DNA from: a virus
Taxonomy: Duplodnaviria; Heunggongvirae; Uroviricota; Caudoviricetes
DNA: 64,000 bases
Strand: one strand, 5' to 3'
Virus record (IMG/VR): IMGVR_UViG_2562617085_000008
Program-made: the position numbers
Shown: one piece after another, positions 46,901 through 52,900 of the stretch
How positions within the stretch are numbered: the stretch's first letter is position 1
Layout of the letters: every line of letters starts with the position of its first letter

Positions 46901-49900
46901 AGCATCCATCGACTGCGTGTCCTGATTATGTTCAGTTGTATCCGGTTCCACTGCTTCAGTCGTTGCCTGTTCATCTGCCATTGCGCCAGATGGCTGCGGT
47001 TTTTCTTCATCATCCTGTTTTCCTTCTTTTGTTACACGCTGCGGCATTGGAGCAGAGGAGCGACCGCAGGCAATATCCACGATTTCTGGATCAGGGTTGG
47101 CATGGTCGGTTTCGGTCAGTACTTTGTTCAGATATTCGGTAACACGGTGGGGAGTAGCCTCGATACCAATTGGTGCTTCTTTCACGGACGCAACCACTAT
47201 CGCGCGGGAATAATCCAGGTGACCAGGCATGGCGATGAATTTGTCACGAAAAACAGAAAAGGGCGGCTTATTCTCTGAAACGATTTCTTCAATGCGTTTG
47301 GCGTGTGCCGGATGTGGATTGTAAATATCGATGTCCATTGAACGGGCCAGAACGCCAGCGGCAACGTCACGTTCTACTGACGCATCATCGTGGACAAAAC
47401 CTTCACCGCGATCGGTAAGAATTCCTCCGCCAGCATTAGCGCCGGATGGCGTGCGGCTGATGCGTAAAACACGATTTCCTTTCATCCACTCTTTTGTCAG
47501 CAGACCTCGATCGGTATAGTCAGCGTCCAGGTATGCTTCGAAAAAAGCAGTCATTAACCCCAGACTGGAATTAACGGGATTAGGGAAAACTTTGTCTGTG
47601 TCGCGTACCAGTTTGTGAAGGTCGCGAATCTCCAGCGGGTCGAGCAGCTTTGTGTTGTGGGAAATAGCCAGGGCAGTAACAGCAGGCAGTTCTTCAGCTC
47701 GTGCGATATGTAATGCCTGAAGTTCTTCCCGTGAAACGTGCGTTACCGGTTTTTCGCTGCCATGTTGCGCAAGCCAGCGAATGGGCAGTTCCTGACCGGA
47801 AATCGGCAGGAGCATATTATCCTCAATCTCAGCCATGTCTTCGCCATTGACGTTGGTATTGTCAGAGCTGGCTGGTTTGTCCTGAACTGAGGGGGAAGGC
47901 GCTATAAATATCATTGTGATGCCATCTTCCCCGCCTTTTTCATAGCGGTTGCAGAATTCAGTATCGAACACACCTTCAGGCGGCAGGTCATTAACAATGG
48001 GCAAATTCACGCGAACAGGTTTTTTGAAATCCTCTTCGTCAAATCCAGCATCGTCCATTGCGACAACACCCCGTGATATTGCAACCGATAATTTTTTTGC
48101 TGTGCGCCAGTAAAAACCGCCTTTAATCCCAAGGCGTTTTCTGACTTTGTCATTTTTGGCTTCGTAATACAGTGCAATTTCTTCTTTATCAGTGCTCATT
48201 GATAAACCTCATAACTATTTTAAGGTTGTACGAATCCCTGCCATTGCTGGCATGCTTAATCAACGGGTATGGCGTTAATACGGCTGGCGGGTTATCCAGC
48301 CGGTATTTCGTTATTCAGGTACAGCGATACTTTGTTTAACGGGAGACATTCACCGGAAATTTTTTGCTCGTCTCTTGCCTGATGGCAGGATTCTTTACTG
48401 GCATAAATTCCGGTAATCACATTCTGTGGCTCACCTGTTATAAGAAAAACCGTCATCATCAGTGCAAACGCTGAACTCACTGCTGCCCTCCGAAAATGCC
48501 AAGTTCAAGAAGGGCAATTCTGGAGAGTATGGAATTATCATTGAGAAGATAAGGCTCATATTTTCTCATCCTGATGGCGTCTTCAGTAAACTCCCGGTTA
48601 CTGAGCAGAATACCAATATTAAAACACCCTTCAGACGTATTAACGTTTGGTAGTGACGTTTCCATTATCGCGTCCTCAACAATGAATTTTGTGATGTGGT
48701 GCCTGGTGCCTCCAGGTGACGTTAACCAGTTAACAATTAACGCCGGAATACAGAATCACCCATAACGCTGTTTTTAGCTTTAACTGTTCCGCGTGCGCTC
48801 AGCCGCATTCACCACATCACAAAATTCACTTTAAAAAGGGCGGCAGAGCAGTCACGGAGTAAAACTGATACCGCCAAACGTCACCAGAAAATTGATAACA
48901 GAAGGCGTTGCAGCGGGGTTGTCACTTAAGCGTATGGTCAACCTGACAACCCGGTGTCCTCAACGGGGAAGAAATAACCCCGCCATACTTACCGCCGCAC
49001 CATTTCGCGGGTTGCCACAACCGGAAGCGCACGGTCGACGAAAATTTAACGACAGGCTATCTATGAACCAGCTACCTCGCCGTGCGCTTTCGCGTTATGG
49101 TCTGACTTTTCAGGGAAATATCCTTTCAGTAAACTGTCAGTGCCGGATGCTCACCCGCGTCCGGCGCACGCACTCCACCTCACCCGTGGAGAACTACTTA
49201 ATTACCAACCTTAGCTTCGTTGGTTAGCTATTAACGCGGGTATGTAATCATTCTGGCAATGCTTAATGCCGCTGCTTTTTCCAGATTGGTGATATCCTGC
49301 TCCAGAGCGGACAGTTTTTCAGCCTGCTTAGCCCTGGCTTCATTGGCCCATTTCAGATCCTGCGCTGCATTAATTTTCTGGCGCATCCACTCATAAAGTT
49401 CATCATCGGTATAGTCTGGTGCGATGATGACGGGTTCTCGTTTCTGCATACTGATTCCTCGCGGTGCTGTTTCGCTTATCAGCCGTTAGATTTTGCCGAG
49501 CTGGAAAGCGCCTGTTTAAATTCGTTGAAGCTGAGAGCTTCTTCGCCGTCGGCAAGACCTTCGAAGTATTCTTCATAAGCCTTTTCCATGATTGTGTCGA
49601 AATCCATATCACTCACCTGAGTTTCTTTCCAGCCAGCGACGGGCACCATTTTCGGTTTTAAACGTTTTGCTTTTGGTATACGTCATCGCGGTGAACGTGC
49701 CGTCCTGGTTGGGGAACACGCCACATACCAGAGATTCGCTGTTGCCAAGATCGATAGTATCCATGCTGACCTCATTTCCCCTTAACGCCGGGTAGCGGAA
49801 CTGTTTGCTGAGAACACCGTGCGGTGTCTTGATGGGTGGTAATTTAGTTTTCTCATGAATGTTGGTCAAGTATTTTTAATGAGAAAACTCAATATTTAAT

Positions 49901-52900
49901 GCAAAATAAAGCCAATACATTGAAATGTAAGGCTTTAAAATTTGTGAAGGGGGTTACTGATGTTTGTTACGTTTGCGAGCTTCTAGTAGCTCGGTGAATA
50001 GGCGATTAAAATTCTCAACGCGGGCACGGAGTTCGCTGATTTGTGCTTGCTGCTCTGATTTTGGAAGTGCGCGATACAATCGCAACATCTCCAACTCATC
50101 TTCCGATAAGTCTAAGGCGCTGTTGAGTGCAACTGGTGGATCTGGTGTTTTATCCTCGTCACCAAACAGTATCCAAGTTGGTGAACATTGCAATACCTCA
50201 GCCAGGCGATGCAAATTTTGCCCGCGCGGGGCTGTATGGTCGCTTTCCCATAGTGAAATTGATGAGCCAGATACGCCAGCGGCTTTGCTTAAATCGTTTT
50301 GACTTAAACCAACCTGTTTGCGTCTTTCTCTAATTCGTTGACCTAAAGTTTTCTCGTTCATATTTAGATATCTTAATCACCCTTGACTTGAGATTCCTTG
50401 AGTGATTACTATTGAGAAAACTCAACTTTGGAGGGGTGATGTTTAAATCAGACGTAATTAATTTTTATGGGACGAAAGCCAAAGTAGCGAAAGCTGCTGG
50501 TGTTGATCCATCTGCTGTTTCTCAATGGGGGGAACTGGTTCCTGAAGGTCGCGCGATGCGCCTGCAAGAGGCATCCGGCGGGGAACTTCAGTACGACCCC
50601 AAAGTTTATGACGAATATCGTAAGGCAAAGCGGGCGGGGCGGTTGAACAATGAAAATCACCCCTGAACAGGTTTGTGAGGCTCTGGATGCCTGGGTATGT
50701 CGACCAGGAATGACACAGGAGCAGGCGACGATATTAATCACGGAAGCATTCTGGGCTCTGAAAGAACGCCCGAACATCGATGTTCAACGCGTCACGTTTA
50801 ATGATGGCGAGGTTGATCAACGGGCGCTGGGCGTTAACCGGGTGAAGATATTCGAACGCTGGAAAGCTATCGACACCAGGGATAAGCGGGAAAAATTCAC
50901 GGCGCTGATTCCGGCAATTATGGAGGCTATCCGAATTAGTGATTTCAGGTTGTATCGTGAGATCAGTGATGGAAAAAGCATTACGTACATGATCGCCGGA
51001 TTAAACAAAGAATATGGCGATGTGGTGGAGTCCGGGCTGCTTTTTGCGGATCCAGCTGTTGTGGAACGTGAGACTGACGAGCTTATAGAAAAAGCTATTG
51101 CTTTCAAGCATGCGTATCGTCAGCAGTATCAATATTACTTTGCAGATAAACAAATATCTGCCAGGGGTTCGTATGAGTATCGATGCACTACGATGGGCTA
51201 AAAAGGTGAAAACCGGCAGTTCATCCAGTAAGTCTGTATTGACCTGGCTTGCTGATATGTGCGGTGCCGATTTGTGTGCATACCCGTCTGTATCTGCACT
51301 GGCAGAAGTAACGGAACTGAACAAAAAGACTGTGCAGGACAGCTTACGACACCTGATGGAGATTGGGTTAATTGTTGATACCGGTGAGAGAAAAGGCAGA
51401 ACAAAGCAAATTGTGGTGTACCGACTTATCGGTGTAGAAGAAAGTGTTGCCGAGCCTGAATACACCCAAAAACGGGTGTCTTTAAAGGTGGGTAAAATTG
51501 GTGCTGTTAATAAAAACAGTACCGAAAACGGTTATGTTTCAGCACAAAAGAGCCCCAAAAACGGAACTCTTTGTTGCATGGAAAATAACCAAAGACACCC
51601 AAATTTTCCATCAAAGACACCCAAAAACGGATCACGGAACCCAAAGGAACCCAAAGATCTAAACCCCACACATAACGCACGCGAGAGTGCTCCGACCAGT
51701 GAGCAGGAAGTTTTGTCGTTACAGGCAGCCCCCCATGTATTCCTGGATGGCCTGAGCGAACCCATCGGAAAATTTCCGATGACCGATAGCTGGTATCCGT
51801 CACGGGATTTTCGACGACGGGCTGCGTTGTGGGGGATGGCTTTGCCGGAGACAGAATTTACACCTGCTGAACTTACCGCATTCCGGGACTACTGGGCAGC
51901 GGAGGGGAAAGTGTTTACGCAGATTCAGTGGGAGCAGAAATTCGCCCGTCACGTAAATCACGTCAGGGCGCAGGTTAAACCAGTCAGCAAGGGGGTAAAC
52001 CATGCAGCAGCACCAGGTGGCACCGCATCACGGGCAGTTCAGGAAATTCGGGCAGCACGTGAGCAGTGGGAACGTGAAAACGGATTTATCAGCGACGGAA
52101 ACGGCCTGGAAGCTGTGGGAACTCATGGGGGAGGTTTATTCGAACCGCTGGACCCAGAAGAACGGGGCCGCACCTTCGAAGCTCTGGATTGCACAGATTG
52201 GCGCGATGACTGAGCAGCAAATCCGGCAGGTCTGCCGCCAGTGCATGGACCGCTGCCGGGCGGGTGAAACATGGCCTCCGGACCTGGCTGAGTTTGTGGC
52301 GCTGATTTCGGAAAGCGGGGCCAATCCATTTGGCCTGACGGTGGATGCTGTGATGGAGGAGTATCGCCGCTGGCGTAATGAGTCCTGGCGATATAACGGA
52401 AGCGACAAATATCCGTGGCCTCAGCCTGTGCTGTATCACATTTGCCTCGAGATGCGTTCAAAGGGGATTGAACGCCAGATGACCGAAGGGGAATTAAAAC
52501 GGCTTGCAGAACGGCAGCTGACGAAATGGGCAAAGCATGTTAGTAACGGCCTGAGCGTTCCGCCAGTACGGCGACAACTGGCGGCACCAAAACGCCCGTT
52601 GGGACCAACGCCAATTGAGTTGCTGAAACAGGAGTATGAACGCCGGAAAGCGGCTGGTTTTGTCTGATTTGAGAAGTAATTTTTATCCGGAGGAAATTTT
52701 AATGGGAACCGTATTGCATGCACTGAAAGCGATGGGTAAAGCCAATTCTGTTGAACTGGCGGCGCGGCTTGATATCAGCCGTGAAGAAGTTCTCAACGAA
52801 CTGTGGGAACTCAAAAAAAATGGCGTTGTTGATAAAACGGGTCACACCTGGTTTCTGGCTGGTGAAGGTGAATCCGGGGTAACCGAAGAACAGCCAGCAC

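Follow-up and report, generated by a model that had tools for sequence, protein, structure and literature searches.

A probable DicA/DicC-type lysogeny switch, with predicted operators unlike those of K-12, in the second of two tandem ompW prophages of Escherichia coli O157:H7

How is lysogeny ended when the repressor that maintains it has no domain with which to cleave itself? The question is raised by a 64,000-bp stretch of viral DNA (record IMGVR_UViG_2562617085_000008; hereafter the window), in which a short repressor gene is flanked on both sides by repeated operator-like sequences. The window corresponds to positions 1691958-1755957 of E. coli O157:H7 TW14359 (NC_013008.1), all 64,000 bases matching (100% identity, 0 mismatches). 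Its left part holds the late region of a lambdoid prophage, A, together with the effector cargo genes nleA, nleH1-2, nleF, nleG and espM1; past an ompW fragment lies a second lambdoid prophage, B, in the order int, xis, exo, dicB and on to terminase and portal. The repressor gene belongs to the early region of B. The two prophages are integrated in tandem at ompW, B being the second of them. The gene ompW was formerly called yciD, and prophage A, at about 58 kb, presumably matches Sakai Sp9 in size. Sp9 sits at yciD according to one paper. As set out below, we conclude, with a probability of roughly 0.8, that the early region of prophage B is a DicA/DicC-type lysogeny switch, of the family first described in the Qin prophage of K-12.

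The repressor open reading frame (ORF; 49954-50361, minus strand) encodes 135 amino acids (aa; WP_001003379.1), consisting of a Cro/C1-type helix-turn-helix (HTH) domain, a linker and a two-helix C-terminal domain. Pfam places HTH_3 at residues 10-64 (E 1.2e-16) and matches the protein to Cro/C1-type HTH models only; no match to Peptidase_S24 was found at E<=0.01. An AlphaFold2 model built with 26 homologues (mean predicted local distance difference test score, pLDDT, 85.6) contains helices only and no strands: five in the HTH domain, then a lower-confidence linker at about residues 67-86, then helices at 87-98 and 101-134. When this model was compared with the PDB using Foldseek, the matches were HTH proteins only, with no S24 peptidase among them; they include the N-terminal domain of the P22 c2 repressor (target template modelling score, TM-score, 0.95; root-mean-square deviation, rmsd, 0.7-1.0 A; about 48% identity), and the first 72 residues also align with the solved P22 c2 DNA-binding domain by phmmer (E 2e-15). 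Only 65 residues follow the HTH domain, and the sole Ala-Gly pair of the protein, residues 28-29, lies inside that domain, leaving the linker with no Ala-Gly cleavage site.

The first-pass annotation, made from the sequence alone, had described a 135-aa repressor with nothing but an HTH domain and a helical C-terminus, and had named beforehand the S24 peptidase fold as the finding that would speak against it. Both the Pfam result and the model agree with that description, and the S24 fold is absent by Pfam, from the AlphaFold2 model and by Foldseek. The repressor does not belong to the self-cleaving class represented by LexA, lambda CI and P22 c2, which is characterized by an S24 fold with a Ser-Lys dyad, and since it has no such domain, RecA-stimulated self-cleavage is excluded. 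It instead shares 56% identity with K-12 Qin DicA along its entire length (E 2e-51), and it carries the DicA-family C-terminal region LPESEQ...RARVxNFNxLFxELLxARKR, in which the columns invariant over the 26 homologues read LPxSEQ...R..NF..LF.E.L.ARKR. By its HTH domain, its length, its homology and its gene context it is a member of the DicA / Gifsy-type short repressors. The short helical C-terminal domain presumably mediates dimerisation.

What this repressor might bind is suggested by repeats in the DNA around its gene. Only two exact copies of the 12-mer TGAGAAAACTCA are present in the window (49880-49891 and 50413-50424), and a copy with one mismatch lies on the minus strand at 49844-49855. 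The intergenic regions on the two sides of the gene (189 and 77 bp) have in common the exact 13-mer TGAGAAAACTCAA, whereas a match of 13 or more nucleotides arose in only 1 of 5000 dinucleotide-preserving shuffle pairs of these regions. The 9-nt core GAGAAAACT is present four times in the window, all of them within 580 bp (49846-50422), and when 14-mers were scored against TTGAG-N4-CTCAA, 24 positions in the 64 kb reached at least 8/10, 5 of which fall in the 266 bp of intergenic DNA. The repetition of the motif is real and non-random. The fourth copy of the core (50347-50355) was rejected as an operator: it coincides with repressor codons 3-5 (E-K-T), and the Buttiauxella homologues read GAAATGACG there, so that it is not conserved.

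These sites had been described at first pass as perfect palindromes at 49879-49890 and about 50407-50418, with an imperfect third copy. Two exact 12-mers do flank the repressor gene, and the third copy is imperfect as stated, but the coordinates were off by 1 and 6, respectively, and the reverse complement of TGAGAAAACTCA is TGAGTTTTCTCA, which shows that the 12-mer is not a perfect palindrome. The symmetry resides in inverted arms of 4-5 bp, TTGAG and CTCAA, around an asymmetric AAAA centre, and the 5-bp arms are perfect at 50412-50425 only.

That best copy is the predicted operator OR1, or Oc-like site (TTGAGAAAACTCAA, 50412-50425; 10/10, with the 4-bp AAAA centre), which adjoins the -10 element and covers the start of a predicted PR-like promoter (TTGACT-18-TACTAT, 50383-50412, plus strand). 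Two further predicted operators accompany a predicted PL-like promoter (TTGACC-17-TAAATT, 49841-49869, minus strand): OL1 (ATGAGAAAACTCAA, 49879-49892; 9/10) is placed 10 bp upstream of the -35 element, and OL2 (ATGAGAAAACTAAA on the minus strand, 49843-49856; 8/10) lies between -35 and -10 and overlaps the latter, such that the two bracket the -35 element with their centres 36 bp apart. Both promoters were placed by consensus scans. The first, laid out like dicCp of K-12, would drive cro, ydaT and the replication genes; the second, which aligns with K-12 dicBp and is its likely equivalent, would drive ydfA, ydfB, ydfC, DicF, dicB and the genes beyond. Operator sites overlap both of them, and together with the 12-mer copies and the shuffle test this bears out the initial idea of a prophage immunity switch with operators at both divergent early promoters. 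Two candidate weak operators complete the right-hand side: an Om-like site (TTGAGATTCCTTGA, 50388-50401) within the spacer of PR, its distance from the centre of OR1 being 24 bp, and an Oa-like site (TTTAGATATCTTAA, 50363-50376) that adjoins the repressor start codon, 25 bp from the Om-like site. The resulting tripartite layout, with its 25- and 24-bp centre spacings, resembles the description of Oc, Om and Oa in K-12. The Oa-like site may be preferred by Cro or may be autoregulatory.

Comparison with other loci ties the motif to the repressor. We took repressor relatives and their flanks from one genome per species and from phage records, and found a near-identical recognition helix in four loci: the window, the isolated Escherichia phage mEp460_ev081 (LR597641.1), Buttiauxella ferragutiae and B. 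gaviniae, the Buttiauxella repressors being 75-76% identical to that of prophage B. Across these four the motif is kept at three operator positions, with 12/14, 12/14 and 13/14 columns invariant (12/14 for OL1), as against 38% (OL) and 60% (OR) of the other intergenic columns; among the candidate weak sites, 11 of 14 columns are conserved in the Om-like site and all 14 are invariant in the Oa-like one. Where the recognition helix is a different one, different inverted repeats occupy the same positions, as in the K-12 type, Citrobacter braakii, E. whittamii and prophage A, and likewise in the Yersinia, Rosenbergiella and Symbiopectobacterium types. Of the computational arguments for assigning the motif to the repressor, this covariation of operator and repressor is the strongest, and from these sequence comparisons we infer that the repressor binds inverted-repeat operators at both early promoters.

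The motif might instead serve mainly the Cro-like protein or another factor, or be sequence inherited with the promoter module, while the repressor recognizes something else. In K-12, DicA bound only one of three sequence-predicted sites, namely Oc (PMC3441716), and the recognition helices of the Cro proteins are alike (PSAVSQW or RSAVSQW) in loci with the TTGAG half-site, including that of C. braakii, whose repressor differs. Since Cro and repressor share operators in lambdoid switches, however, a role for Cro overlaps with repressor binding rather than replacing it. Moreover, the strongest site lies exactly at the position of K-12 Oc, the sole site shown genetically to bind DicA and one at which a single base change abolishes binding (PMC3441716); the motif varies in step with the recognition helix of the repressor from one DicA type to another; and the flanks of the motif copies are not homologous to one another. 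We consider it highly improbable that the motif serves mainly another factor or is only inherited sequence.

The neighbouring genes place these operators and this repressor in a familiar setting. Divergent from the repressor gene is that of a 75-aa Cro-like lytic repressor (50439-50666, plus strand; Pfam P22_Cro, E 1.1e-17), a DicC homologue with 71% identity to the K-12 protein, followed by a YdaT-family gene (50650-51201, plus strand; Pfam YdaT_toxin; phrog_163, CII-like transcriptional activator, E 8e-42) and then by O/P-type replication genes. On the other side, the cargo of the PL operon (48477-49764, minus strand; RefSeq annotation) comprises ydfA (DUF1391; 49609-49764), ydfB (49479-49607), ydfC (49231-49449), the small RNA (sRNA) DicF (48838-48889; Rfam, 76.7 bits) and dicB (48477-48665), all on the minus strand. 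This gene order, combined with homology to DicA, DicC and DicF, identifies the region as a dic-type immunity module.

Several smaller elements lie between the genes. A terminator-like hairpin followed by UUUAUUUU stands directly after the repressor stop codon (49902-49944, minus strand; -12.3 kcal/mol, z-score -3.4, with 0 of 200 shuffles folding equally well), and this hairpin with its U-tract is probably a terminator that keeps transcription of the repressor gene separate from the PL operon. A perfect palindrome, ACACCGTGCGGTGT (49814-49827), stands in the leader of the PL (ydfA-dicB) transcript and is identical in K-12 Qin and in prophage A; the Buttiauxella and Citrobacter loci have another palindrome (AATCACT..AGTGATT) in its place. 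It may be a conserved RNA hairpin or a site for a protein, possibly nut-like. At the repressor start codon (50359-50380) there is no recognisable Shine-Dalgarno sequence, and a conserved element, ATTAAGATATCTAAAT, lies directly before it; the repressor mRNA may be leaderless or nearly so. The lambda cI mRNA from PRM is likewise leaderless or nearly so.

We propose the following account of how the switch would work. A dimer of the 135-aa repressor would bind the 14-bp operators TTGAG-AAAA-CTCAA through its P22-c2-like HTH domain, and in the lysogen dimers on OR1, OL1 and OL2 would block PR and PL. Occupancy of OR1, over the -10/+1 region, would shut off cro, ydaT and the replication genes and, by analogy with K-12 DicA (PMC3441716), would probably activate the repressor's own weak promoter. 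Occupancy of OL1 and OL2 would shut off ydfABC, DicF, dicB, exo, xis and int, while the hairpin after the stop codon would keep the repressor transcript out of the PL operon. Because there is no S24 domain, derepression would be expected to come from an antirepressor or from flipping of a bistable switch: in the first case from a small antirepressor, for which the best candidate is a Rem homologue encoded 6 kb downstream in the same prophage, and in the second from stochastic or stress-driven flipping of the repressor/Cro pair.

The Rem homologue (86 aa, WP_000984523.1; 56162-56422, plus strand) is 73% identical to K-12 Rem (E 2e-40), and its gene lies beside hokD and its sok antitoxin RNA (Rfam; 55620-55794, plus strand). 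In K-12, Rem derepresses the DicA-controlled dicBp, and the DicA/DicC pair is a bistable switch that flips spontaneously, or in response to urea or heat, and needs neither Rem nor RecA to do so (PMC10448788). That induction probably needs an antirepressor was already part of the first-pass annotation, and the homologous DicA/Rem (PMC10448788) and Gifsy (PMC3121763) systems lend this idea support by homology, although the Rem gene in the very same prophage had been overlooked. Going by these relatives, induction of prophage B is probably driven by an antirepressor, and Rem is the best candidate for the protein that would act on its repressor.

A number of points weigh against this account. In K-12, both spontaneous and urea- or heat-dependent induction of dicBp are independent of Rem (PMC10448788), and Rem may therefore not be the main physiological trigger; what triggers Rem is itself stated to be unknown even in K-12 (PMC10448788). 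No LexA box was found upstream of rem in searches for CTGT-N8-ACAG and relaxed forms of it, a result that accords with that statement. Because the Rem homologue is only 73% identical to the K-12 Rem that was tested, and the repressor only 56% identical to DicA, the interaction between the two is extrapolated from the K-12 pair. Our literature search gave no binding, footprint or reporter data for this immunity type. Lastly, the Om-like and Oa-like sites both score only 8/10, and since DicA binds neither of their K-12 counterparts, Om and Oa (for Om, in vivo; PMC3441716), we keep them as candidates only.

The region upstream of rem is nearly identical in K-12 and in mEp460_ev081, which likewise have no LexA box there, and given the lack of such a box SOS control of rem was rejected. 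In the window as a whole, CTGT-N8-ACAG occurs 5 times, against 0.8 expected. Two LexA-box-like palindromes have A/T-rich centres: CTGTTAATAAAAACAG (51504-51519) lies in the O-like replication gene, is absent from mEp460_ev081 and is probably fortuitous, and CTGTTTTGAAAAACAG (43420-43435) lies in insertion sequence (IS) debris before the ompW fragment.

A second candidate antirepressor is encoded by prophage A, and the first-pass annotation had drawn attention to it as a possible source of cross-talk between the prophages. The Ant-like gene is there as described (5685-6254, plus strand): its 189-aa product has a strong P22 Ant N-terminal domain (Pfam P22_AR_N, E 1.4e-45) as well as ORF11CD3, and it matches phrog_524, the anti-repressor Ant. 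If this protein bound and inactivated the B repressor in trans, the result would be an induction cascade from A to B. In favour of this, the repressor and P22 c2, which P22 Ant inactivates (PMC3064807), have DNA-binding domains with about 48% identity, and the gene is inserted in the lysis cassette, with those for lysozyme and Rz on either side (a 48-aa ORF, 6254-6400, comes next), which makes it a late gene whose product would be made once prophage A is in late transcription. The same timing would be too late for the protein to initiate the induction of its own prophage, however, and the match to the phrog_524 profile spans only positions 7-210 of 317; no P22 Ant C-terminal domain was detected by Pfam, and the protein does not have the full Ant architecture. 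The 189-aa form recurs in many Shiga toxin (Stx) phages, such as BP-4795, and is therefore a stable short form and not the product of a truncation in this prophage, and the 386 phage records that match the gene are mostly Stx-converting or other Escherichia/Salmonella phages, regardless of immunity type. A literature search gave no experiment tying the 5685-6254 gene to any DicA-type repressor, and an antirepressor appropriate to the family, Rem, is present in both prophages. On balance, we think it very unlikely that the Ant-like protein sets off prophage B. The Phi24B ant study (PMC3064807) was set aside as evidence on this question: it concerns a different gene, located upstream of qut and similar to the C-terminal part of P22 Ant.

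Rem offers another route between the prophages. We examined prophage A to the left of the window (TW14359, NC_013008.1, 1678019-1691897), where it is integrated at ompW and has a dic-type module with the same architecture as in B. Its DicA-type repressor (1684434-1684841) is 53% identical to that of B and 63% identical to K-12 DicA, and its operators, TTAGATTTTCCTAA and related sequences, are unlike those of B; the B operator does not occur in the part of A that was examined (int to rusA). With both repressors and operators differing, the two prophages are heteroimmune. (The O157 'DicA/DicC' of Pan et al. 2019, PMC6915034, was considered as the pair of prophage B and rejected, the primers matching the prophage A repressor, MKNETFG....) The rem gene, on the other hand, is the same in both: together with 215 bp upstream it is identical at 481 of 481 nt, and both copies encode WP_000984523.1. 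The Xis proteins of A and B also share an accession (WP_000113189.1), and along with the shared rem region this suggests recent exchange between the tandem prophages.

Because the repressors are heteroimmune and the rem regions identical, cross-talk between A and B is plausible through Rem rather than through the Ant-like protein, so that the notion of cross-talk survives in a form other than the one first put forward. Rem variants and repressor specificities assort independently, mEp460_ev081 combining a B-type repressor with a K-12-type Rem (2652-2903 of the retrieved locus). Such free shuffling is what would be expected if Rem recognised the conserved C-terminal half of the repressor and not its DNA-reading head. 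One could extend this, tentatively and as a possibility we would not bet on, to a scheme in which a single Rem targets the conserved helical C-terminal domain that the two repressors have in common, and perhaps that of the other DicA-type repressors in the genome, in which an SOS-independent signal co-induces several prophages along with their DicF and DicB, and in which the late-expressed Ant-like protein might be a second-tier amplifier. What makes coupling of interest is that the same Rem is encoded by two neighbouring prophages that are heteroimmune, one of which carries type III effectors, so that their induction may be coupled and SOS-independent. If true, this would bear on the mobilisation of effector genes and on DicF/DicB expression in O157:H7.

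The switch could in principle do no more than silence dicB and DicF in a decayed remnant, as in K-12 Qin. O157 prophages are often defective. The K-12 counterpart of the module has persisted in a cryptic prophage, where it has a silencing role (PMC10448788). Prophage B, however, contains within the window int, xis, exo, the O/P replication genes, Q, a lysis cassette, terminase and portal with no frameshift flags, and is apparently complete rather than a remnant. Repressors 96% identical to its own are carried by two isolated Escherichia phages, mEp460_ev081 and HannyBb (PP925841.1), of which mEp460_ev081, the one examined, has identical OR and OL operators and the same dicB/rem layout. We regard the remnant interpretation as rather unlikely, and it bears on the targets of the switch rather than on its mechanism. 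Prophage B also has Rfam matches to STnc100 (60851-61043, plus strand) and to the anti-GcvB sRNA AgvB (61045-61106, minus strand).

The closest known system to the DicA/DicC-type switch proposed here is that of the K-12 Qin (Kim) prophage. There, too, dicC/cro is divergent from dicA, followed by ydfA, ydfB, ydfC, DicF and dicB, with rem beside hokD; the repressor has 135 aa and no Ala-Gly/S24 cleavage machinery; and operators occupy the same positions at both promoters, OR1 of the window aligning with K-12 Oc, and OL1 and OL2 with two sites at dicBp. The operators themselves differ, TTGAG-AAAA-CTCAA here as opposed to TTAGT-CATA-ACTAA (Oc, TTGTTAGTCATAACTAACAA) in K-12, and so do the recognition helices, SGSSISLWE here and SHVSVSQWE in K-12. 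The K-12 operator sequence TTGTTAGTCATAACTAACAA is absent from prophage B, which, with the differing helices, implies that the shared scaffold has here an immunity specificity of its own. The module also sits in an apparently complete prophage here, whereas Qin is a remnant.

Looking further afield, P22 operators consist of two 5-bp half-sites around a 4-bp centre, a geometry that the operators predicted here would share, with the half-site TTAAG where prophage B has TTGAG. The resemblance to P22 is restricted to the N-terminal domains: P22 c2 has 216 aa, with an S24-type C-terminal domain, and is cleaved with RecA (PMC3121763; PMC10448788), whereas the present repressor stops at 135 aa and has two helices in place of the S24 domain. 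A full-length Foldseek match to SinR/SinI of Bacillus subtilis (1b0n), also an HTH domain with a short helical C-terminal domain, is a structural analogy only (rmsd 9 A), with no detectable sequence relationship beyond the HTH domain and with unrelated biology.

The Gifsy-1, -2 and -3 repressors, GfoR, GtgR and GfhR, are closer in kind: they have about 136 aa and no cleavage motif, and they are not cleaved but stripped off the DNA by small antirepressors whose genes lie elsewhere than in the immunity region (Lemire et al. 2011, PMC3121763). DicA was assigned to this repressor family, and GfoA and GfhA each act on both heteroimmune Gifsy repressors (PMC3121763), a parallel to the cross-talk through Rem considered here for A and B; our likeness to Gifsy is drawn from that paper's description. 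The Gifsy antirepressor genes are LexA-controlled (PMC3121763), in contrast to rem, with no LexA box found upstream of it here. Publications already exist on the module, on the class of non-cleavable repressors and on induction by antirepressors, while no description of the operator sequence of the B-type specificity was found in searchable papers. Among 5426 complete E. coli genomes, 797 contain this repressor immunity type, which is also that of the isolated phages mEp460_ev081 and HannyBb, and 3016 contain Rem homologues. The operators predicted here add one more immunity specificity, and a common one, to the characterised DicA/DicC/Rem and Gifsy family.

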